64,000 bases of DNA from contig JAKJDF010000003.1 in NCBI GenBank assembly GCA_022706085.1, positions 338,879-402,878 of the forward strand. The letters are read 5' to 3'. Positions within the stretch are counted from its first letter, which is position 1. Every line of letters begins with the position of its first letter. The stretch is from Candidatus Latescibacterota bacterium. GTDB lineage: Bacteria > Latescibacterota > MWCZ01. The position numbers and the translations under genes are program-made. The notes under the pieces were generated by a model. That model searched no databases and was not told the DNA's origin. It saw only the letters and a program-made list of their open reading frames with translations. Below, one piece after another: positions 40,279 through 53,487 of the stretch.

Positions 40279-42945
40279 GTGACTTCTCGAAGTCGTTTGC
40301 CACGAGCAACCGTATCGCAGCTTGAACGGATTGTCGGACGTGGTTTCGTGATCGTGGACGAAGCCCTGCTGCAACTGCACGCCGAAACCAGAGGCAGCGA
40401 TTCCGTCCGCCCGGTGGCAATTCTGCTACCCTCCACGGATGAGCAGGTTTCTCAACTTTTTCGCCTGCTCGGGAGAGAGGGGCTTGGTGCTTCGGTGCGC
40501 GGCGGTGGCTCCGGTCTGGTCTGGGGGGCACTCCCACACGACGCGGTCACAGTAATCAGCACCGCGCGGATGAACACACCCCTGCGAATTGTTCCGGAAC
40601 AGATGAATGTCACTGCGGGGGCAGGAGTGCGGATAGAGGAAATCGCTGCCGGCGTGGCTGCACACGGATTCCGACTTTGTGGCGGAATGGACATGCCCCC
40701 GTTTGCCACGGCAGGCGGATTTGTCGCGAGAAACGGGGATGGTTACGGTGGACCCTTAGGGCTCGCAGATGGCCTCTTGTCCGGAATCAGGTGCGTTTTC
40801 GCGTCGGGTGACATCGTCTCGTCTTCCAAGTCGGGTTTCAGCGGACCGCTCGATCTGCACGGGTTCGCCGTGGGGTCGGAAGGGACCCTTTGTGTCGTCA
40901 CCGAGGCGACGTTTCGCCTGGAACCCGCGCCGCCGAGAGAAGTGATTGTGGTGGCGTTGTTTCGGGACGTGGTTGCCGCAACCGTCGCCGGTGTGGGTCT
41001 GTTCAAGACGGGGTTCTTACCGGACAGCGCGGACATTATCGCCGCAGAAGCCATTCGAGGGGCTCTGGCGGGCGAAGCGGCGGCAGCCGCAGGCGCGGCG
41101 TTGCTGGTCTCTATCTCCGGTGGTGAGCAGGACGTGGAGGACGGTGCGCAATGGGTATCGGGTATCTGCCATGATTTCCTCGCGATGCAGGCTCTCGTGA
41201 CTGAGAACCGGCAGAGGCAAGAGATAGCGAATTGCTGGCGTTCCGCGCAGCGCCAGTTCTGCTCGCCTCATGGCGGTGTGCTTGCGGATTTTTCCTGCCC
41301 GCTGGCGGCTCTTCCGGAGCTGACGGGATATGCCCTGGGGCAGGCGCGGGAGTACGGAGTTGTCCTGTCTGGAATGGTCAGGGTGGCTTCTGAGTGTCTT
41401 TGGATGCATGGTGCAGCGAAACAGGGCGAGGAGGCAAAAGAACAGGCTTTCGCGGCGCGGCTTCAGGAGAAGGCGTTGGCGCTGAAAGGGAGCGCTCTTG
41501 CCGCGCACGGTGTTGGAGCGCGACGACTGGATTTGTTGCCGTCGCTGCACCGAGAGGCCGATCTGGACGCGATGAGACGTATCGATGCGGTGTTTGACAA
41601 GGACGCCATTTTGTCTCTTTCCCTCCCGCAGGCACGAAGCGCGGAACGGCGTGACATTGTTGCACGCAGGAGGCGTGAGGAAGAGGTCAGGGTACTCAAG
41701 GCAAAAACAGCGGAGATTACCAGCAAGGCATCGCTTGGCGCTCTTGCTGAGTCGTTGGCCGTCCCGGCACCGGAGGTATTGGGCTTACTGGTGCGGTCGG
41801 CGAGGGAACGAGGCATCGTGCTTTCAATAAACGGGTTTCCTCGCGGCGCTTCCCTCGACCTCGACACTTCAGGTCTGAACAAGGTCGTGCTCTCCGACAA
41901 CACAAGCAGAGTAGTTGTCGCGGAGGCAGGGATTGCTCTGAATGACCTGGCCACCCATCTCGCCGCCAACGGGCTGTGGTTCCCCGGGTCACCCTACGTC
42001 GACGGCGCCATTCGTCTCGGGGATTTTCTTGCCTGGGAGACTGAGGGCGGGTTTGCGCCGGGGTACGGGAGAATGTACTCGCGGGTCCTCGGGCTGGAGG
42101 CGGTTACGGGTCGCGGAGACGTGATGTCCTGGGGCGGGATGGTTCGCATGCAACATGCTGGATTGCGACTTTCTGAACTTTGCCTCGGGAAGCGGAACCG
42201 GTACGCGATCATCACCGCAGTTGCGTTGCGTGTCGCGGTTACTCCCGCCACCAGGCAGTGCGTAGTCGCGTCTTACGACAATATCGCGGCCGCGTCGAGC
42301 TTCGCTCGCCTCGCGCTGCGGGGAGGGCAAGGGAGTTCAGGGCACCTTGCCCCTCGCGCGGTAGCCCTTTTCAATGGTCCGCCAGGTAGTGGTCGCTCGG
42401 GAGAAGGTGTCTCTGTGGTCGTGGAGTTTTCGGGAACCTCTTCCTCCGTGGCGGGACACGTGAACCGTGCGACGGTACTGGCGGCCGTGGAGGGAGCGGA
42501 CCACATTACTTCCCACGAAGACAAGGCGTGCGAAGGCCTCTGGAGACGTATCGCAGAACGGTACAGCCCCGTGCCGGACGCCGTCAACGACGAAAGTCTG
42601 AAGCTGGTTTTGACTACCCCACCGGACACGCTCGGGTTCTGCCTTGACCATATTTCTCGCGCCTGTTCACGCCGCGGGCGCAGATGTGAGTATGTTGCCG
42701 ATGCGCTGGCTGCGCGGGCAGACGTTGTTGTCCCGAACGGGGTATCGGTGGCTCCCGAGATTCTGCGGGAACTGGACGAGAATCTGACGGAGACGCCCGC
42801 AAGGATCGAGGTGTTTTCCCGGCATGAAGGCCTGCAGGAATTCATGCAGAACCAAGGACAGCCTCCGCTGGCGGAGGAACTTAAACAGCAGTTCGACCCG
42901 AGCGGGATACTGCCTTCCGGCCGTCTCCCCGCGATCGGCAGATGA
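40279..42945 (+). CDS. tandem-duplicated FAD-linked oxidase (two FAD_binding_4 + FAD-oxidase_C units in one 888-aa chain)
   Basis: First unit PSTDEQ...GGGSGLVWGA ... DAVFDKDAILS; second unit VVAEAGIALNDL...GLWFPGSPY ... QQFDPSGILPSGR. GTG start. Confidence 0.6.
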   Translation: MTSRSRLPRATVSQLERIVGRGFVIVDEALLQLHAETRGSDSVRPVAILLPSTDEQVSQLFRLLGREGLGASVRGGGSGLVWGALPHDAVTVISTARMNTPLRIVPEQMNVTAGAGVRIEEIAAGVAAHGFRLCGGMDMPPFATAGGFVARNGDGYGGPLGLADGLLSGIRCVFASGDIVSSSKSGFSGPLDLHGFAVGSEGTLCVVTEATFRLEPAPPREVIVVALFRDVVAATVAGVGLFKTGFLPDSADIIAAEAIRGALAGEAAAAAGAALLVSISGGEQDVEDGAQWVSGICHDFLAMQALVTENRQRQEIANCWRSAQRQFCSPHGGVLADFSCPLAALPELTGYALGQAREYGVVLSGMVRVASECLWMHGAAKQGEEAKEQAFAARLQEKALALKGSALAAHGVGARRLDLLPSLHREADLDAMRRIDAVFDKDAILSLSLPQARSAERRDIVARRRREEEVRVLKAKTAEITSKASLGALAESLAVPAPEVLGLLVRSARERGIVLSINGFPRGASLDLDTSGLNKVVLSDNTSRVVVAEAGIALNDLATHLAANGLWFPGSPYVDGAIRLGDFLAWETEGGFAPGYGRMYSRVLGLEAVTGRGDVMSWGGMVRMQHAGLRLSELCLGKRNRYAIITAVALRVAVTPATRQCVVASYDNIAAASSFARLALRGGQGSSGHLAPRAVALFNGPPGSGRSGEGVSVVVEFSGTSSSVAGHVNRATVLAAVEGADHITSHEDKACEGLWRRIAERYSPVPDAVNDESLKLVLTTPPDTLGFCLDHISRACSRRGRRCEYVADALAARADVVVPNGVSVAPEILRELDENLTETPARIEVFSRHEGLQEFMQNQGQPPLAEELKQQFDPSGILPSGRLPAIGR

Positions 42946-46389: not shown

Positions 46390-47226
46390 ATGCACCTCCG
46401 CGCGGAGGATCTTGAAGCGTACCGGGACCGGTTGTGGTGCCGCCTGCCATCGCTCCGAATCCATGATGAGGATGAGGCCGCCGCGTATCTGCAGCGGGTT
46501 CCGATGTGCCTCGCTTTTGGTGGGTATGCGCTCGGTGTGCCCACGATGTGGGTGGCCGCATGCGGCGTCCGCAATCCAGTTTTCCCCAGGCATTCCCATC
46601 ACGACGCGGCAGTAGGATTGGTATGGCGTGCGAAAGAGACGCTGGTCCATTCTGGTGCCGCGTATTACGGGCGTTTGTTCCTCAACAGACCCTCCTTTGT
46701 TGCCAGGAGCTGGCTTGCCACGGTGCTGGCCGGGTACCCGCCGGTGAAGCTTTCGCAAGAAGCACAGGCTGTTTCGCAAACGCTGAAAGAATCAGGTCCT
46801 CTTCCCACACGAGAACTCGGCATCCGGTCGGGCATTTGTGACCGACGGGTCCTCACAAAGGCGCTTGAGGAAGCCCAGACGGGATTGCGGGTTACAAAGG
46901 TGGAGGAACGCAGCGACCCGTTCACGTACGTGTGGGGTACGCTGAGCACGCTCTACGCGCAGGAAATCGATCAGGCGAAGGAGATTCCTCAGTGTGTCGC
47001 ACAGAGGAAGATCGTCGCGCTGTGGTTGAATTCGCTTGGATTTACACAAGCGGGGCGTCTCGCGAGGATACTCGGATGGGATGAGCGTATCGTCCGGAAC
47101 GCACTCGCCGATCTCGTCGCTTCAAAAACCGTTGTGGACGAGGTTTCACTGGAAGGCGCACGCGGATTCTGGGTGGGCATCCCCAGGCTTCTTGACGAAG
47201 GGATTACTGGCCCTGCGGTCGAGTGA
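46390..47226 (+). CDS. hypothetical protein, possibly winged-helix containing
   Basis: ATG ORF of 278 aa with no confident family; 3' end overlaps the convergent BMC gene by about 23 nt. Confidence 0.4.
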   Translation: MHLRAEDLEAYRDRLWCRLPSLRIHDEDEAAAYLQRVPMCLAFGGYALGVPTMWVAACGVRNPVFPRHSHHDAAVGLVWRAKETLVHSGAAYYGRLFLNRPSFVARSWLATVLAGYPPVKLSQEAQAVSQTLKESGPLPTRELGIRSGICDRRVLTKALEEAQTGLRVTKVEERSDPFTYVWGTLSTLYAQEIDQAKEIPQCVAQRKIVALWLNSLGFTQAGRLARILGWDERIVRNALADLVASKTVVDEVSLEGARGFWVGIPRLLDEGITGPAVE

Positions 47227-47833
47227 AAAGAGCCTGAATCACAGGGTCGGGATGCGGGATAACATGCGTTGAGGCCAGGGTGCCGACGCGTTCTGCCGCC
47301 ACGGCCCCGGCTGCGAGAGACGCTGTGACAGCCGAAACGTCGCCCGTGACGAGAACGGAAACCCTTGTCTGCCCGATCTTCTCTTTGGCAAGAAGCCCCA
47401 CATCGGCGGATTTGAGCATTGCGTCAAGCGCGGCCACGGCGCCGGCGAAGCCGCGCGTTTCCAGCATCCCCATTGCACGGTCATCCACCGGAACGAGTCC
47501 AACTGCTGGGATTATGTGGTTCCGGGATTTCAGAAGGCCGCTGATCGAGGGTTTGCACGCTATCCACATGGTGTATGCGCACGACGAGTAGCGCGGGATG
47601 ACTGTCGCGCCCACCAGAGCATCCAACTGCCTGGCTGTTGCTTCTCCGGCATCATGCGCAGCCGTGACCGCTGCCGCGTTCCCCGAAGCCTTGATGGTCA
47701 AGGCACCAAGCGTGTTGACCTCGAGCGCGATGAGGGTGATCGCCGCTGACTTCACCATCGCGTCTGCCACGACTACTGCAGGCGGAAGGCCCTGGACTTC
47801 AACGATGGTCAAAGCTTCGTCCGTTTTGCTCAT
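47204..47833 (-). CDS. bacterial microcompartment shell protein, tandem BMC domains (BMC-T, PduT-like)
   Basis: Two BMC (PF00936-type) domains. Domain 1: EALTIVEVQGL...ADAMVKSA...VIPR. Domain 2: [65 protein letters not shown]...HVIPHP. ATG start 3 nt after the aldolase stop. Confidence 0.85.
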   Translation of the reverse strand: MSKTDEALTIVEVQGLPPAVVVADAMVKSAAITLIALEVNTLGALTIKASGNAAAVTAAHDAGEATARQLDALVGATVIPRYSSCAYTMWIACKPSISGLLKSRNHIIPAVGLVPVDDRAMGMLETRGFAGAVAALDAMLKSADVGLLAKEKIGQTRVSVLVTGDVSAVTASLAAGAVAAERVGTLASTHVIPHPDPVIQALFTRPQGQ

Positions 47834-47836
47834 GCG

Positions 47837-48859
47837 TTACCTATTCGTCCGCATCTGACGCACGACCTCCGCGACAATCGCCTGAATTTCTGCTTCGGAA
47901 GGGGAGCCATCCTGCCCAAGGGGCTCGCACCCGACGGCTCCTTCGATCTCCGCAACGAAGCCATGTTCGCTGAGGATGCAGTGGAGAGTCTGGCGCACCG
48001 CGTTGAGATCGCACTTTTCTTTCGGGGAAAGTGGCTGGCGGGATTGCCCCATAACGAAGCCCCTCAAGCTGGCTGCCGCACGGAAGCCTTCCGGGAATCC
48101 CGCTCCGAACAGCATGACATTGATGAGCTCCAGCAGCTTGAACTGGATTCTGCGCGCCTCCTCGATCTGACCCGATTCCGCAAGCGCGTACAACTTCATC
48201 ACAACTTCCGGAACGATTCCGCTTGTGGCGATGGTTCCCCCATCGCCGCCCATCAACAACGCGGGCAGAATGATCTCTTCGGTACCGATGAGAATGCTGA
48301 AATCGGGGCGCCGTGGCCGCATACGGTTGATCAGGTTGAGGAAACGCGGAAAATCCCGGCTCGAATCTTTGATGCCGACGATGCGTGGGAAATCAGCAAG
48401 ACGCTCGATGGTGTCCAGGCTGATTTCGTTGGCAAACTGCGGGATGTTGTAAAGCACGATGTCGAGTTCCGTGTGGCGCGCAAGTTCGGCGAAGTACTCA
48501 CCCACTGAGTCCTGCGAGAGTTTGAAGTAGTAAGGCGCGCAGATGGCAGCCGCAGTGCAGCCCATTTCGGCGTACGCGGCGCAGGCGGCCAATGTGTCAC
48601 GGACTGTTGCCTCTGCTGCACCAGCGAGGACGGGAACGCGCCCATTGACCTGGCTGGCAACGATCCGGATGATTTCGCGCCGTTCTTCCGGACTGAAACG
48701 GGTGAATTCCCCGGTGCTCCCGTTGGGGTAGAGGCCGCTCACTCCCTTCTGAACGAGCCATTCTACGTAGCGACGAAGCTCGTCCTCCGCGATATTCCCG
48801 TTGCGATCCAGCGGTACGAGATTTGGCGTGAGGATACCCTTAATTCTGGCCTGTGACAT
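47837..48859 (-). CDS. DHDPS/NAL-family class I aldolase (2-keto-3-deoxy-sugar-acid aldolase-like) with C-terminal extension
   Basis: GSTGEF, YNIP, Schiff-base Lys block VGIKD. About 45 extra C-terminal residues: Gly/Pro/Ser linker then amphipathic helix SEAEIQAIVAEVVRQM. Confidence 0.8.
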   Translation of the reverse strand: MSQARIKGILTPNLVPLDRNGNIAEDELRRYVEWLVQKGVSGLYPNGSTGEFTRFSPEERREIIRIVASQVNGRVPVLAGAAEATVRDTLAACAAYAEMGCTAAAICAPYYFKLSQDSVGEYFAELARHTELDIVLYNIPQFANEISLDTIERLADFPRIVGIKDSSRDFPRFLNLINRMRPRRPDFSILIGTEEIILPALLMGGDGGTIATSGIVPEVVMKLYALAESGQIEEARRIQFKLLELINVMLFGAGFPEGFRAAASLRGFVMGQSRQPLSPKEKCDLNAVRQTLHCILSEHGFVAEIEGAVGCEPLGQDGSPSEAEIQAIVAEVVRQMRTNR

Positions 48860-48875: not shown

Positions 48876-49640
48876 TCAGAAGGTGATGGTCAATCCGCCG
48901 TCGATGGTGATTGTTTCACCAGTAATGTATGTTGCGTAGGGACCTGCAAGGAATACCACCGCTCCGGCGATTTCGTCCGGTCTGCCGGCACGGCGGAGAG
49001 GGAGATGGTGTCCCTCGACGTAGTTGGTGCGAAACCATTCCCCGGCGAGCTCGTTTTTCCCGCCGGCTTTGACGGACATCGGGGTATCCACAAAGCCGGG
49101 TGCAACTGCATTCACGAGGATGCCCTGGTCCGCAAGTTCCACGGCAAGGGCCCGAACGTACTGTGTAAGTGCGCCTTTTGCTGTTGCGTAGGCGGAAGCG
49201 CCTTTCTCGACCCGTTCGCGATGGATGCTTGTAACCACCACGATCCTGCTTCCGAAAGGCATCAGAGGGACGAACGCGCGTGTGCAATGCACGGCTCCCA
49301 TGAGCATGGTGTCAATGGGAAGCATCCAATCCGCGAGTTCGGAAGTTATGGGATGGGCTGCAGCCGACACGCCTGCGTTATTTACCAGCACGTGGAGCGC
49401 ACCCCAGCGATCACGGATCAGGTCCCTCGCGTTCGCTACCTGAGCCGCAACAGTGACGTCGGTCGGAATCACAAGATGGTCGCCTTCCGGCATGGCACTG
49501 CGGGTTTCTTCAAGCATTTCCTTCCGTCGCCCCAGCAGCCCGACAGACGCTCCTTCCCGTGCAAAGCGCACGGCGATGGAGCGTCCGATGCCGCTTCCCG
49601 CCCCGGTGATCACGGCGTTTTTGCCGTCCAATGTGCCCAT
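48876..49640 (-). CDS. SDR family sugar dehydrogenase
   Basis: TGAGSGIGR Rossmann motif, NNAG, SxnY...K catalytic pattern. GAGGAA RBS before the ATG at 49640. Confidence 0.8.
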   Translation of the reverse strand: MGTLDGKNAVITGAGSGIGRSIAVRFAREGASVGLLGRRKEMLEETRSAMPEGDHLVIPTDVTVAAQVANARDLIRDRWGALHVLVNNAGVSAAAHPITSELADWMLPIDTMLMGAVHCTRAFVPLMPFGSRIVVVTSIHRERVEKGASAYATAKGALTQYVRALAVELADQGILVNAVAPGFVDTPMSVKAGGKNELAGEWFRTNYVEGHHLPLRRAGRPDEIAGAVVFLAGPYATYITGETITIDGGLTITF

Positions 49641-49648
49641 TCCGTTCC

Positions 49649-50830
49649 TCAATCGAAATGGTCAATTTCGACCAACACTTTTCCGTTCAATTCGATCCGT
49701 ACAGGTTGCAGGTATTCCTTCGCAGCGCTTACGTCCAGTTCCATCCCGAGTCCCGTGGCTCGCGGCAGGCGAACCAGCCCATCCGAACCTGGAACCAACG
49801 GTGCGGCCACGAGGCGCTTTGCAAGGTCCGACGCGGCAGCAGGGAACTCGAGATACCGGAACATGGATTCGCCAGCGAAGACATGGAACGATGCCGCGAG
49901 CGAAAGATGCGATTTGAACGTATGGTTCACATAGATCGCACCGTGATTTCTGGTAAGTACCGCGACATCCCTCGCCGGAGTCAATCCGCCGATGCGTCCC
50001 ACGTCAATCTGGAGGAAGTCCACCTTTCCGTTGCAGAGGATATCCTGAGCCGTTCGGAAGCGCGCCGCACCTTCGCCCGCAGCTATGGGTACCGGGGGAT
50101 TCAGCGCTTTCAACTTGCCGTATTCGTCTACCGCGTCCGGAAGGAGAGGCTCTTCCAGCCAGGTAGGCCGGAACGGTGAGAACGCGAGAGCTCTGGCGTA
50201 TGCGGTTTCGTAATCAGTTCCCCAGGCGACTCCGGCGTCGATCATGATTTCCGCTTCTTCACCCATACCTTCGCGCGCGGCGGCTACCAGGTCTACGTCG
50301 AAATCCGCACCGTGTTTCCCCATCGGTCCCCAGCCGAATTTCGCGGCACGGAAGCCCAGTCTTCTCAATCCCCTCGCGCGTTCGAGGGTCTCCTGTGGTG
50401 TATCTGCGAACAAAACGGACGCGTAGGGGAGCTTTGGATACGCGATTGCGCTTCCGAGCAGGTGATACACCGGCTCGTCCAACTGTTTCCCGAGCGCATC
50501 CCACATCGCAATGTCGGCCGCGCTGTACGCGTGATCGATCTGTTCGATGTCAAGTCCCTGCCTGCGGACCTTCTGATACAACCTTCTGACATCTTCCGGC
50601 GTGTCGAGCCGCTCCCCGAGCAAAGATTCCCTGATGTTGATGATGTTCCCGTGCGACATCGGGCAGTAATACGCAGCGAGGCTCACCAGGGGAGACGCGT
50701 CGGATTCCCCCCAACCCGTCACCCCGGTGTTCGTTCGGATGCGCACAAGAAAAGTATCCTGCGTTCCATCGGCCGCGTCGGTAATATGGGGCATTGCGAG
50801 AATAAACGCGTCAACGTCCGTAATCAGCAT
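49649..50830 (-). CDS. enolase-superfamily (mandelate racemase / muconate lactonizing enzyme family) sugar-acid dehydratase
   Basis: MR/MLE N-terminal capping domain and barrel with metal ligands (IDAG..., EEP, ...DVG). ATG at 50830; the track ORF extends 45 codons further to a non-ATG start. Confidence 0.75.
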   Translation of the reverse strand: MLITDVDAFILAMPHITDAADGTQDTFLVRIRTNTGVTGWGESDASPLVSLAAYYCPMSHGNIINIRESLLGERLDTPEDVRRLYQKVRRQGLDIEQIDHAYSAADIAMWDALGKQLDEPVYHLLGSAIAYPKLPYASVLFADTPQETLERARGLRRLGFRAAKFGWGPMGKHGADFDVDLVAAAREGMGEEAEIMIDAGVAWGTDYETAYARALAFSPFRPTWLEEPLLPDAVDEYGKLKALNPPVPIAAGEGAARFRTAQDILCNGKVDFLQIDVGRIGGLTPARDVAVLTRNHGAIYVNHTFKSHLSLAASFHVFAGESMFRYLEFPAAASDLAKRLVAAPLVPGSDGLVRLPRATGLGMELDVSAAKEYLQPVRIELNGKVLVEIDHFD

Positions 50831-50832
50831 CG

Positions 50833-52143
50833 TCAACCTTTCGAACTGGTCGTGTTGCCGTAATAGCCGGCCTTCTCGTACGACTCGTCCAGAAGTTCGA
50901 TCACGTGAGCGACGGAAACGTCCATACCTGCTTGACGGACGCCTGCCTGGATCTGCATCTGGCATCCCGGATTAGCCGTCACCAATGTTTCAGCGCCGGT
51001 TTCGAACAACGCGCTCAATTTGCGCTGTAACACTTCTTCGGCGATATCGGCGTGGGTGAGATTGTATATGCCTCCGGAGGCACAACATCGATCGGCTCCG
51101 CGCAAGGGTCTGAAATCGAGGTCTGGAACTCCTTTGAGGACGTCCAACGGGGCAGTTTTCACCTTTTGGGCGTGGTACAGGTGGCACGGTGCGTCGTATG
51201 TGACTTTGCGTCGAATTGGCGCGCCTTTGACGACCCCCGTTCGGGCAAGCAGCTCGGTCACATCGCATACGCGAGATGCAAATCTGTGGGCGCGCGCAGC
51301 GTAGCGGGGGTCGTCTTTCAACAACTCCCCGTATTCTTTCATCAAAGCCGCGCAACCTGCCGCGTTCACAACGATGGGAGTGTCGTTGCTATCCTCCAGA
51401 GAATCGATGTTTTTCCTCGCCAGTTCCCTGGCAGCATCTACGAAACCGCTGTGGTCATGGAGAGAGCCGCAACAGGTCTGTGCCTGAGGAACCGTAACCC
51501 GAAAACCGTTCACCGCGAGGACGCGTGTGGTAGCCTGATTGACGTTTTTGAAGAGCTCATCCATCACGCATCCGCGGAACTGCACGACAGCTCCTCTTTC
51601 AGGAGCTTGCGGTGAAACGGGTGCGAATTCTCCTTTGCGGGGCGGCGGAGGCAGCATTTCAAGTCCCAGGCGGACGATTGATGGCAACCACCGCCACCAG
51701 CCGTTCGAAGGGCGCAGATGCCGGATTACACGCATCGGGTATACCGCCGGTCTGAGCAGAGAACGGCGGGGCAGAAGGTAAAGACCCATCCATCGCAACG
51801 CGCGCGCAAGCCACCCCATGTCCGACGCGCCCAGCCGTCGCAGATCGTGCCGCGCGGCCTCCATTATGGTTCCATAGCGCACGCCCGAAGGGCAGGCTGT
51901 CTCGCACGCGCGGCAGACGATGCACGATTCGATGTGGCGGGTGTATGCCTCATCGGGTGTGATTCTGCCCTCTGCTGCTGCCCGCATGAGGTAGAGCCTT
52001 CCGCGGGGAGAATCGTTTTCGTCTCCGAGAACGCTGTACGTGGGGCAATGGGGAAGACAGAAGCCGCAATGAACGCACGCGAGGAGATTATTCTCCTGTT
52101 TCTTCACGGCGTCTGGCAACAGACGTTTTCGTTTTCCAAACAC
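50833..52143 (-). CDS. glcF: glycolate-oxidase-type iron-sulfur subunit (GlcF-like, 2x4Fe-4S + CCG domains)
   Basis: CVHCGFCLPHCP and CIVCRACETACP ferredoxin motifs, C-terminal CCG-type Cys clusters (CCGS..., CCASGG). GTG start with GGAAG RBS. Confidence 0.75.
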   Translation of the reverse strand: MFGKRKRLLPDAVKKQENNLLACVHCGFCLPHCPTYSVLGDENDSPRGRLYLMRAAAEGRITPDEAYTRHIESCIVCRACETACPSGVRYGTIMEAARHDLRRLGASDMGWLARALRWMGLYLLPRRSLLRPAVYPMRVIRHLRPSNGWWRWLPSIVRLGLEMLPPPPRKGEFAPVSPQAPERGAVVQFRGCVMDELFKNVNQATTRVLAVNGFRVTVPQAQTCCGSLHDHSGFVDAARELARKNIDSLEDSNDTPIVVNAAGCAALMKEYGELLKDDPRYAARAHRFASRVCDVTELLARTGVVKGAPIRRKVTYDAPCHLYHAQKVKTAPLDVLKGVPDLDFRPLRGADRCCASGGIYNLTHADIAEEVLQRKLSALFETGAETLVTANPGCQMQIQAGVRQAGMDVSVAHVIELLDESYEKAGYYGNTTSSKG

Positions 52144-52161: not shown

Positions 52162-53487
52162 TCAGATTCCTTCCGCGAATCTGCCGGGATTGAGCACCCC
52201 GGAAGGATCGAAGGCTTGTTTCATTCCCTTCATGAGCGAGGCGGCCGTACCGGTCGGCCCCCACACGTCGATGTGCTCTTTCCATCCGGTTGGCAACTTC
52301 TGCAGGATGAGCGAACCGCCCGACGACACCACTTGCAGGCGGATTTCTGAGAGCGCGGGCAGAAGTGCTTGCATCACGGTCGCGTCGCAGGGGGTTTCCA
52401 CCATCAGCGTCGCGCACCCGACGCCAGCGGATGCCGAAAAGTATACGCATTCGGCGGCGTGTCGCAGCGTGTCGGCAACCATCGAGAGAAAAAGTGGAAG
52501 CCGCGACGGAACGGTGTTCAGGCGGACAACAATCGGAAATCCCAACGGAAGGTCTGAGACCATCTGCCAGAAAGCGCTCGCTGTCTGCGCGGGGACGGGC
52601 GCACGCACGCTCAATTCCAATTCCGAGGCGATCCTTTCCATCTGCATTGTCTGCACGCGCACATCGGCCTCTTCGCCCGCGACCCGGACGCAAAGGCACT
52701 GATCTGGCAGGTCGCCTTCCAGGCCCACTTTTCTGAGCGCGTTCTCTGATACGATCTCCAATGAAACCGGATTGACGTTCCTCGCCATCATGCATTCGGC
52801 CGTCTTCCAGACCCGATCGATCTCGTCCGATCCACACACCAATGTCATTTCCGTGGCCGGTTTCGGGTAGACCTTCAGACTTACTTGAGTTATGATCCCC
52901 AGCGTGCCGTATGAACCGGTGAAGAGACGAGTGAGATCATATCCCGCAACGTTCTTGACAACCTTCCCGCCGCTTTGGATGAGCTTCCCGTCGGGCGTGG
53001 CGATCTGGAGGCCAAGGATCCAATCCCGCGGTTGACCGTAACCAAGGCGCAGCGTTCCCGTCTGCGCGGTGGCAACTATTCCGCCGATTGTGCGGCTGCT
53101 GGCACCCGGGGGATCGAGAGGCAGGATCTGACCGTGCTCACCAAACACCCTGTTCAGGTTGGAGAGGAGACAACCGCTCTGAACAGTGGCCGTGAGATCG
53201 GCTGGCTCGTACTCCTCGAATGCGTTGAGGCGGGCCGTGGAAAGCCAGATGTCTCCCCTGCGGGGCGGGTTACCAATCGAGATTGCAGAACCAGAGCCGA
53301 TGGGAAGCACTGCCAGCCGTTCCCGCGCGGCAAGTTCCAGCACGGCGGCAACTTGCTGAGAATTGGCCGGTTTGACGAGGTATCTCGGCCGCACACCATC
53401 CAATGACGCCCATTCGACGGGCACTTCCGTGACAAAATCGTCGCCGGTAATCCGCGCAAGAGGAGTTCTCATTCCCGTTACCGTCAA
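52162..53487 (-). CDS. glcE: FAD-binding oxidase subunit (GlcE-like)
   Basis: FAD_binding_4 block (AVLPIGSGSAISIG), GlcE-like length. TTG at 53487, or ATG at 53472. Confidence 0.7.
   Translation of the reverse strand: MTVTGMRTPLARITGDDFVTEVPVEWASLDGVRPRYLVKPANSQQVAAVLELAARERLAVLPIGSGSAISIGNPPRRGDIWLSTARLNAFEEYEPADLTATVQSGCLLSNLNRVFGEHGQILPLDPPGASSRTIGGIVATAQTGTLRLGYGQPRDWILGLQIATPDGKLIQSGGKVVKNVAGYDLTRLFTGSYGTLGIITQVSLKVYPKPATEMTLVCGSDEIDRVWKTAECMMARNVNPVSLEIVSENALRKVGLEGDLPDQCLCVRVAGEEADVRVQTMQMERIASELELSVRAPVPAQTASAFWQMVSDLPLGFPIVVRLNTVPSRLPLFLSMVADTLRHAAECVYFSASAGVGCATLMVETPCDATVMQALLPALSEIRLQVVSSGGSLILQKLPTGWKEHIDVWGPTGTAASLMKGMKQAFDPSGVLNPGRFAEGI

Follow-up and report, generated by a model that had tools for sequence, protein, structure and literature searches.

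Does the C-terminal extension of an enzyme encoded directly upstream of a bacterial microcompartment (BMC) shell protein address that enzyme to a microcompartment? The question arises from a locus in a 64,000-nucleotide stretch of DNA, hereafter the window, of Candidatus Latescibacterota bacterium (NCBI GenBank assembly GCA_022706085.1, contig JAKJDF010000003.1, positions 338,879 to 402,878 of the forward strand), where a predicted class I aldolase of the DHDPS/NAL family is followed by a gene for a tandem-domain shell protein. Judging from sequence comparison and structure prediction, the tail encoded by the final ~42 codons of this gene is quite probably an encapsulation peptide, by which the aldolase would be directed to a microcompartment. 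The anatomy of the tail, its conservation among homologues, its absence from the outgroups, the linkage to a shell gene and the resemblance to known targeting peptides led us to this reading. The features concerned are listed below with their coordinates in the window.

47837-48859 (-), DHDPS/NAL-family enzyme of 340 amino acids (aa), as read from the open reading frame (ORF)
47966..48859 (-), catalytic core of the predicted class I aldolase, residues 1-298 (Pfam PF00701; AlphaFold2 per-residue confidence, pLDDT, mostly >90)
48368..48370 (-), codon of the lysine predicted to form the Schiff base, Lys164 (IVGIKDSS; aligned to the catalytic-lysine motif of solved DHDPS)
47927..47980 (-), span between the co-varying Cys294 (47978-47980) and Cys311 (47927-47929), from cysteine counts in homologues
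47897..47965 (-), flexible linker, residues 299-321, HGFVAEIEGAVGCEPLGQDGSPS (AlphaFold2 coil, pLDDT 52-62)
47846..47896 (-), putative encapsulation-peptide helix, residues 322-338 (E322-T338), EAEIQAIVAEVVRQMRT (AlphaFold2 helix)
47837..47845 (-), terminal residues N339 and R340 and the stop codon, from the sequence reading
47204..47833 (-), tandem-BMC-domain shell protein of the BMC-T single-layer type, 209 aa (two PF00936 stretches)

A preliminary description of this locus had flagged the span 47840-47974 (-), which translates to LSEHGFVAEIEGAVGCEPLGQDGSPSEAEIQAIVAEVVRQMRTNR and corresponds to aldolase residues 296-340. The extension in this span is real, while the first three residues of the span still belong to the final core helix. 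All of the 60 solved relatives listed among 134 PDB matches (289-343 aa in length) cease aligning by query residue ~296. Thus, the aldolase's C-terminus is 40-45 aa longer than those of the solved family members, in good agreement with the excess of ~45 aa noted at the outset. The AlphaFold2 model, which was run with an alignment of 77 sequences, comprised a confident TIM-barrel core, a coil at residues 301-321 (block mean pLDDT of 62 for 301-310 and 52 for 311-320, with values <50 at 312-316) and a helix of 17 aa at residues 322-338 with a pLDDT of ~80. The linker of ~22 aa is rich in Gly, Pro and Ser, and on a helical wheel I325, I328, V329, V332, V333 and M336 cluster in a sector of 140 degrees, forming one hydrophobic face. 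The Gly/Pro/Ser-rich linker and the amphipathic helix of the preliminary description are therefore both recovered, and two of the checks proposed there, a helical wheel and a secondary-structure prediction, turned out in its favor. Encapsulation peptides have been characterized as amphipathic terminal helices of 15-20 aa attached through a variable and poorly conserved linker, which are present on microcompartment-associated homologues, absent from the others, and necessary and sufficient for shell targeting (Kinney 2012; Aussignargues 2015, PMC4594438). The short terminal helix, the amphipathic pattern and the variable linker are all found in the aldolase tail.

The tail is widely shared among the close relatives of the aldolase. 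The 120 best homologues (57-100% identity; labelled as Latescibacteria, Phycisphaerae and Armatimonadota) were all tailed and, leaving aside a single call of 301 aa with a truncated N-terminus, ranged from 323 to 374 aa in length. When one genome was scanned for each species, the motifs YPNGSTGEF and KDSSRD[FL]P[RF] were present in at least 593 genomes, from which 80 loci, mostly of Planctomycetota and Verrucomicrobiota, were fetched (loci and homologous proteins are hereafter given L and P numbers, respectively, where they need to be told apart). The pattern phi-xx-phi-phi-xx-phi-phi-xx-phi was found in 179 of the 187 non-redundant homologue tails, and the consensus can be written as V-[ED]-x-I-V-x-[ED]-V-(V/M/L/I)-x-x-L-[RK], in which the hydrophobic sites are near-invariant in character and the polar sites vary. 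Among the 604 stop-to-stop ORFs of the window, the pattern is unique to the aldolase; this uniqueness and the frequency among the homologue tails together place the tail beyond chance. The linker measured 15-38 aa across 180 homologues, was poorly conserved and could not be aligned between clades, and the helix was followed by a short hydrophilic terminal fragment (0-9 aa). The composition is close to that published for the peptides of class II aldolases: aliphatic residues account for 36% of the peptide in this family vs 34% in the published ones, hydrophilic residues for 41% vs 38%, and Pro for 0.5% vs 0%. In the linker, Gly/Ala/Ser make up 37%, Pro 16%, and Cys 5.4% vs 5.5% in the published linkers. 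Cys294 of the last core helix and Cys311 of the linker appeared to co-vary, as 182 homologues possess both, four possess neither, two possess the linker cysteine alone and none the core cysteine alone. The linker cysteine lies 12-25 residues (mostly 14-17) after that of the core helix, and the pair suggests that the tail's base holds a disulfide, a redox switch or a metal site.

In a phmmer search against 1.84 billion cluster representatives, the tailed proteins fell into a single cluster at 50% identity. Their nearest relatives outside it, of 303-321 aa and 44-54% identity, stop just after the core and lack the tail, which makes the tail lineage-specific, as the preliminary description had anticipated. 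One clearly tail-less member of the family was found at L050, with no shell gene nearby either. Two outgroup proteins, P0127 (400 aa) and P0143 (403 aa), bear an N-terminal extension of 85-100 aa in place of a C-terminal tail. The extension of P0127 (…LTPSALDLIRARKIQL…) resembles the N-terminal region of a class II aldolase encoded at the Verrucomicrobiota locus L024 (see below). In the available part of its supplement, a published microcompartment catalog mentions PF00701 once, for an N-terminally extended protein near MUF2 loci, and the 'N-terminal domain' mentioned there may be an extension of the P0127 type.

The partner of the aldolase is encoded immediately downstream, its start lying three nucleotides past the aldolase stop (TAA CGC ATG). 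Two PF00936 BMC domains were detected in the protein (E 5e-38), both halves were colinear with PduA, and the best matches were 6NER (a BMC-H tandem fusion) in PDB and a CcmO-like model in NCBIfam, indicating a non-permuted tandem shell protein. We thus assign it to BMC-T of the single-layer, non-permuted type, which would assemble into trimeric pseudohexamers and tile into a shell. The claim that the gene three nucleotides away encodes a BMC shell protein stands, with the correction that the 64 kb contain no other shell gene: searches of the window with PduA, EutN, the BMC-P and BMC-H of L024, PduL-type phosphotransacylase (PTAC), aldehyde dehydrogenase (AldDh) and class II aldolase recovered nothing beyond this one tandem gene. 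The locus is therefore regarded as a satellite. The aldolase stop and the shell start share a reading frame (window 47831-47842 (-)), as they do at L001, which also has a 3-nucleotide gap; the arrangement is probably incidental, since other loci have 4-nucleotide overlaps. Both the aldolase and the shell protein are identical to proteins of a metagenome-assembled genome (MAG), Candidatus Latescibacteria bacterium ADurb.Bin168 (BWY06_01622 for the shell protein). Among the available entries of the catalog, this MAG is listed with BWY06_01657, a BMC-P marked as 'fragmented, main', and with a shell protein of the PduT type, which points to further shell genes elsewhere in the organism.

The linkage between the two genes extends far beyond the window. 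A tandem BMC gene lay directly downstream of the aldolase gene in 34 of the 76 loci with enough downstream sequence, separated by a 3-nucleotide gap or overlapping by 4 nucleotides. In a neighbor-joining tree of the catalytic cores, such adjacency was observed in every deep clade, namely the Phycisphaerae, Latescibacteria and Verrucomicrobia types, Thermoguttaceae/Isosphaeraceae and the Pirellula type. Chance falls far short of explaining 34 adjacent pairs spread over the deep clades, and the adjacency appears to be ancestral. Only the aldolase-shell pair is constant, and the flanking genes differ wholly between loci: a dehydratase and an SDR-family dehydrogenase in the window, L001 and Verrucomicrobia, DeoC and a 2-hydroxyacid dehydrogenase at L002, and housekeeping genes at L084. 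At the loci of the Planctomycetaceae type (L029-L080), genes for a histidine kinase, a helix-turn-helix response regulator and often an NhaC-like transporter precede the aldolase gene, with MnmG nearby, a neighborhood that suggests dedicated regulation and uptake of a substrate. A reverse search from the shell protein gave at least 55 matches; of the two contexts inspected, one comprised an aldolase and the shell protein again, and the other a different tandem protein in a main locus. At L016 (11047-12048) of Limisphaerales, two tandem shell genes lie past the aldolase gene, the second on the opposite strand. The aldolase-shell pairs of L011, L014 and L020 (labelled as Bifidobacteriaceae/Bifidobacterium) and L015 (Omnitrophota) nest in the Verrucomicrobia clade, and the taxa assigned to these MAG bins are probably incorrect.

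L024, which is from a Verrucomicrobiota MAG, places the aldolase amid the genes of an organelle. There, the aldolase-shell pair heads a same-strand operon, in which Pfam identified, in order, the aldolase, the tandem shell protein, PTAC, three BMC-H, BMC-P, AldDh, two BMC-P and a class II aldolase. By gene content, we regard L024 as a complete PVM-type microcompartment locus. The AldDh bears the N-terminal peptide NETLVRDIVSEVLGRLNG (NETLVRDIVSEVLGRL), the class II aldolase bears the C-terminal peptide EAEAAVKAITDQIMAQIGK (EAEAAVKAITDQIMAQI) behind a Cys-containing linker, and the DHDPS-type aldolase ends in NMDQIVHEVLKTLGK (MDQIVHEVLKTL). The peptides of the AldDh and the class II aldolase resemble the tails of the DHDPS-type enzymes including EAEIQAIVAEVVRQM of the window, and the window helix as a whole is close to the peptide of the L024 class II aldolase. 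We built a profile hidden Markov model (HMM) of 176 tails, from which L024 was left out, and searched it against 1186 unrelated ORFs of all loci and the E. coli eut proteins. The top match other than the aldolases was E. coli EutC at residues 5-18 (E 0.0024; N-terminus MDQKQIEEIVRSVMASMGQ, taken from NC_000913.3), and the second was the L024 AldDh at residues 9-21 (E 0.11); residues 336-349 of the L024 class II aldolase ranked seventh (E 1.4). Taken absolutely, such E-values are weak, which is what a profile of 17 columns would lead one to expect. The two best matches are recognized targeting peptides and lie at the correct termini. Within the window, the aldolase was the sole match.

A second, distant DHDPS clade (P0160, 36% identical; 370-400 aa; labelled as Actinomycetota, Humimicrobiaceae and Bacteroidota) displays a comparable arrangement. 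The linker of these proteins contains the motif CxxCGMCxGxxxC and is followed by a helix like an encapsulation peptide, e.g., KEAIKSIVDETVKRIK. The genes of this clade neighbor a BMC-H gene at L092 and, at L093, five BMC-P genes together with a cluster of dehydratase (MR_MLE), lactonase and SDR genes, and untailed DHDPS paralogues are present inside the same loci. The sequences suggest that members of the DHDPS family were recruited into microcompartments more than once. The loci and proteins concerned are L092 10001-11467, L093 8334-12545, P0160 and P0335-P0435.

The core that carries the tail has the hallmarks of a Schiff-base enzyme. The Pfam DHDPS model (PF00701) matched residues 6-293 with an E of 8e-63 and 212 bits against a cutoff of 22.1. 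GSTGE at residues 47-51 with Thr49, Tyr111, Tyr137 and Lys164, as aligned to solved DHDPS, were invariant or nearly so among the 77 homologues, Lys164 being invariant. As far as the alignment tells, the 340-aa enzyme retains in full the residues that mark a catalytically competent Schiff-base aldolase. A true DapA was rejected: the enzyme scored 166 bits for TIGR00674 against the cutoff of 206 and has Phe142 at the position of the aspartate-semialdehyde-binding arginine after YNxP. The NCBIfam scores for NanA, archaeal KDG aldolase, HpaI-like and KdgD identities all fell far under the cutoffs, and no NCBIfam equivalog cutoff was reached by any of the models scored. In the public records for the aldolase and the tandem shell protein (GenBank OQB39514.1 / OQB39515.1), the former is N-terminally truncated (301 aa) and annotated as '4-hydroxy-tetrahydrodipicolinate synthase' in spite of a score below the DapA cutoff, and the latter is a 'hypothetical protein'. 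Both labels are misleading, and the link between this aldolase and microcompartments is invisible in present public annotation.

Several observations weigh against the tail being a targeting signal, or against the function assigned to its bearer. One is that 42 of the 76 loci keep the tail without a shell gene within 10 kb. A single derived clade of Planctomycetaceae, with Gimesia, Schlesneria, Planctomicrobium, Fuerstiella and their relatives, contributes most of the 42; the tail is intact there, and the gene lies beside a two-component system and an NhaC-like transporter. Formally, this is the case that the preliminary description had named as refuting, i.e., homologues with the same tail and no neighboring BMC genes. 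Cargo genes, however, need not neighbor shell genes. Among the catalog entries listed, PVM main loci are given for Gimesia and Planctomicrobium, both of the unlinked clade, and for the related Planctopirus, so that the genome-wide co-occurrence with shell genes rests on three genera. The member at L050, with neither tail nor shell neighbor, likewise lessens the weight of the unlinked loci. For these reasons, and because the deeper clades show adjacency, we consider that the refuting test was too strict. The main microcompartment locus was missing from the window and from the 9 kb past its left edge, where only cell-wall and redox genes were found, and a query made at the right edge matched no gene product exactly. 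The AlphaFold2 model is of a monomer and would be compatible with the helix packing in a tetramer. The hydrophobic moment of the tails was only moderately over that of shuffled tails, with 44% passing the 95th percentile, and that of the window tail itself was 0.57 vs the threshold of 0.66; on its own, the hydrophobic moment discriminates weakly, and positional conservation and the profile search are more informative. The profile matches to the AldDh and the class II aldolase of L024 were weak, as given above. As for the enzyme, the DHDPS family includes dehydratases of the KdgD type, so that the name aldolase is itself a prediction, and a dehydratase of the KdgD or L-KDA type with 2-ketoglutarate semialdehyde as the product may be an alternative activity. 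As no NCBIfam model for the aldolase reaches its cutoff, the sequence designates no substrate.

The unlinked loci, where the helix is conserved just as strongly as elsewhere, can be accommodated if the tail is an oligomerization or regulatory helix intrinsic to the subfamily, stabilizing or gating the tetramer, with the shell gene being coincidental. The co-varying Cys294 and Cys311 at the junction of the core and the linker hint at such a structural or redox role. However, variation in length and sequence together with predicted disorder, as seen in the linker, would be unusual for a structural interface element, and the same motif occurs on three unrelated cargo enzymes of L024 and on EutC. 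Nor would an intrinsic helix sit easily with adjacency to a shell gene in 34 loci over all deep clades, or with the second, distant DHDPS clade, which pairs a similar tail with neighboring shell genes independently. We hold this explanation to be improbable.

Two other explanations retain the shell protein or the other cargo as the partner of the helix and differ in where the enzyme resides. The helix could be a docking peptide for the co-encoded tandem shell protein, perhaps on its outer face over the pore, in which case the aldolase would feed its aldehyde into the organelle and would not itself be luminal. This would account for the inheritance of the aldolase and the tandem shell protein as a unit even in unrelated neighborhoods, and for the classical PVM loci, which are described with BMC-H and BMC-P only, making the tandem protein an add-on that comes with the aldolase. 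On the other hand, the Planctomycetaceae clade possesses the tail without an adjacent tandem shell gene, and the motif is generic, being shared with the peptides of AldDh, the class II aldolase and EutC that are regarded as luminal targeting signals; docking from the outside thus carries only a small probability in our estimate. It is less probable still, and in our view very unlikely, that the tail drives a shell-independent co-condensation of the aldolase and AldDh into an enzyme aggregate for channelling. Encapsulation peptides alone can indeed condense fused cargo and bundle mutually, but condensation is regarded as one stage in assembling the organelle rather than as an alternative to encapsulation, and the linkage to a shell gene, extended in L024 to a whole shell operon, favors an end state bound to the shell. 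Altogether, targeting of the aldolase into a microcompartment remains the preferred reading.

What the enzyme might contribute to an organelle can be considered from the genes upstream, which run on the same strand in the order of GlcE-like, GlcF-like, enolase-superfamily dehydratase, SDR, aldolase and shell protein.

48876..49652 (-), SDR-family dehydrogenase, upstream member of the operon (Pfam adh_short_C2, E 2e-58)
49649..50830 (-), candidate acid-sugar dehydratase of the enolase superfamily, MR/MLE (Pfam MR_MLE_N, MR_MLE_C)
50833-52143 (-), GlcF-like Fe-S subunit of a 2-hydroxyacid (glycolate/lactate) oxidase (Pfam CCG/Fer4; NCBIfam GlcF 294 vs 333 bits)
52162-53487 (-), GlcE-like FAD subunit of a 2-hydroxyacid oxidase, head of the gene run (FAD_binding_4; NCBIfam GlcE 171 vs 284)

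The best PDB and NCBIfam relatives of the SDR include glucose 1-dehydrogenases, and we infer it to be a sugar or keto-deoxy-acid dehydrogenase; it co-occurs with the aldolase at L001, L013 and L020. The best PDB match of the dehydratase candidate is the uncharacterized 2HZG (E 6e-104), and the protein resembles the gluconate, galactonate and rhamnonate dehydratases of NCBIfam with scores under the cutoffs. The longest ORF of the dehydratase (49649-50965) overlaps the GlcF-like gene (50833-52143 (-)) by 133 nucleotides. Its true start is likely at 50830 (MLITDVDAF…), which matches the N-terminus of 2HZG and leaves a gap of two nucleotides. At the other end, an AlkZ-like DNA glycosylase gene (46390-47226 (+)) converges on the shell gene (47204-47833 (-)) with a 23-nucleotide overlap of the 3' ends and marks the end of the aldolase operon. 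Five kb past the shell-gene end of the operon, ~8 kb from glcF and on the opposite strand, an 888-aa protein (40279-42945 (+)) looks like a fusion of GlcD-like and GlcE-like FAD oxidases, with two FAD_binding_4 stretches, and is encoded beside a xylose-isomerase-like TIM-barrel gene. This fusion may complete the GlcEF-like oxidase of the operon.

The block of dehydratase, SDR, aldolase and shell protein recurs at L001 and in Verrucomicrobia. By analogy, the gene run has the layout of a non-phosphorylative sugar pathway, which would lead from a sugar through a lactone and an acid and then a 2-keto-3-deoxy acid to pyruvate and an aldehyde. The route of L-fucose in which L-2-keto-3-deoxyfuconate is cleaved into pyruvate and L-lactaldehyde has been documented, and L-lactaldehyde is an established substrate of PVM organelles. 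L-lactaldehyde from 6-deoxyhexonates is the most likely of the aldehyde products considered, at somewhat less than an even chance. Glycolaldehyde from pentonates is the main alternative, in itself rather unlikely, and is to be taken seriously because GlcEF-like proteins typically oxidize glycolate; it is also possible to read these proteins as a lactate dehydrogenase. Microcompartments are classed by the signature enzyme that makes a toxic intermediate. In every version of the pathway, the tagged enzyme would be the one releasing the aldehyde, which fits this logic, and the predicted aldehyde-forming enzyme is the sole tagged member of its operon.

We propose the following mechanism. Encapsulation peptides are known to act by binding the shell or by bundling with other cargo peptides, and can by themselves condense fused cargo. 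The hydrophobic face of the aldolase helix would bind shell tiles or bundle with the similar helices of AldDh and other cargo, bringing the aldolase oligomer into the lumen. In the cytosol, the dehydrogenase and the enolase-superfamily dehydratase of the operon would make a 2-keto-3-deoxy sugar acid, which would then enter the organelle, possibly via the co-encoded tandem shell protein. This protein might be a pore for the larger anionic substrate or a preferred docking tile, and we estimate the pore role to be less probable than the targeting itself. The aldolase would cleave the acid in the lumen into pyruvate and a reactive aldehyde, the latter would be consumed on site by a CoA-acylating aldehyde dehydrogenase from another locus of the genome, and the GlcEF-like oxidase would finally oxidize the resulting lactate or glycolate. 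The aldolase-shell pair would thereby represent a portable satellite module of two genes that adds a non-phosphorylative sugar-acid route to an existing aldehyde-processing microcompartment.

The catalog describes the ACI, FRAG1-7, HO, MIC2-7 and MUF2-3 types as having an aldehyde dehydrogenase and lacking an obvious signature enzyme. We suggest, tentatively and with odds that fall short of even, that the tailed aldolase and the tandem shell protein form a widespread and horizontally portable plug-in module. In cryptic metabolosomes, e.g., the FRAG and MIC7 types of Latescibacteria, the module would take the place of the absent signature enzyme that generates the aldehyde, and it would provide the PVM organelles of Planctomycetes and Verrucomicrobia with a second, non-phosphorylative entry for deoxy-sugars or pentoses, with the tandem shell protein as the conduit of the 2-keto-3-deoxy acid. 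If this is true, non-phosphorylative sugar acids join the substrates of such organelles, the motifs of the subfamily being present in at least 593 species-level genomes, and pathway reconstructions change for the Planctomycetes and Verrucomicrobia breaking down the polysaccharides of algae and plants. The cryptic organelles of Latescibacteria and relatives would gain a concrete candidate for their signature enzyme. In addition, a compact unit of enzyme, peptide and shell tile is attractive for engineering synthetic organelles.

Among the systems known, the closest in terms of the tail are the class II (PF00596) fuculose/rhamnulose-phosphate aldolases of the PVM, PVM-like, GRM5 and ACI types, which carry a C-terminal helix of ~17 aa behind a variable and Cys-rich linker. 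Their peptides are nearly identical in composition to those of the present family (PMC4594438) and likewise tag an aldehyde-generating enzyme, and the two enzymes stand side by side in L024. The hosts of the peptides differ: the class II aldolases are metal-dependent and of another fold, whereas the host in this case is a DHDPS/NAL TIM barrel with a Schiff-base lysine. The former cleave a ketose phosphate to yield dihydroxyacetone phosphate, while the DHDPS-type enzyme would take a non-phosphorylated 2-keto-3-deoxy acid and yield pyruvate. The peptide of EutC, the small subunit of ethanolamine ammonia-lyase, is QIEEIVRSVMASM, nearly superimposable on V-E-x-I-V-R-E-V-M-x-x-L, and its linker contains cysteines as does the aldolase linker. 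In contrast to the aldolase tail, the EutC peptide is N-terminal and belongs to a different enzyme, organelle type and set of phyla.

In terms of gene organization, the pair is reminiscent of the EUT satellite modules (EutABC and an EutL-type tandem protein) associated with HO and SPU, which also unite an aldehyde-generating enzyme with one tandem shell protein and have been proposed to widen the substrate range of the resident organelle, with the shell protein as the entry pore. The present module differs in comprising two genes, in its enzyme, and in its non-permuted CcmO/PduT-like tandem protein as opposed to the permuted EutL type. Class I aldolases in microcompartments have precedents, as the DeoC-type (PF01791) enzymes of SPU are Schiff-base aldolases that release an aldehyde in a metabolosome, and about half of those of SPU2 carry encapsulation peptides. 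They differ in belonging to another aldolase family, in having an N-terminal extension and in acting on a phosphorylated deoxyribose. In terms of the pathway, FucH (L-2-keto-3-deoxyfuconate aldolase of L-fucose route 1) is alike in being a Schiff-base enzyme that acts after a sugar dehydrogenase and an acid-sugar dehydratase, with pyruvate and L-lactaldehyde as its products; compared by its description only, it differs in that neither a microcompartment nor a C-terminal tail is mentioned. In the open-access papers and bioRxiv preprints searched for this enzyme family in connection with microcompartments, no description of the tail was found, although a diagram of PVM satellite loci might show the pair. 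Against these systems, what we regard as new is the DHDPS/NAL family as predicted microcompartment cargo, equipped with an encapsulation peptide of the standard kind and paired with a tandem shell tile of its own.

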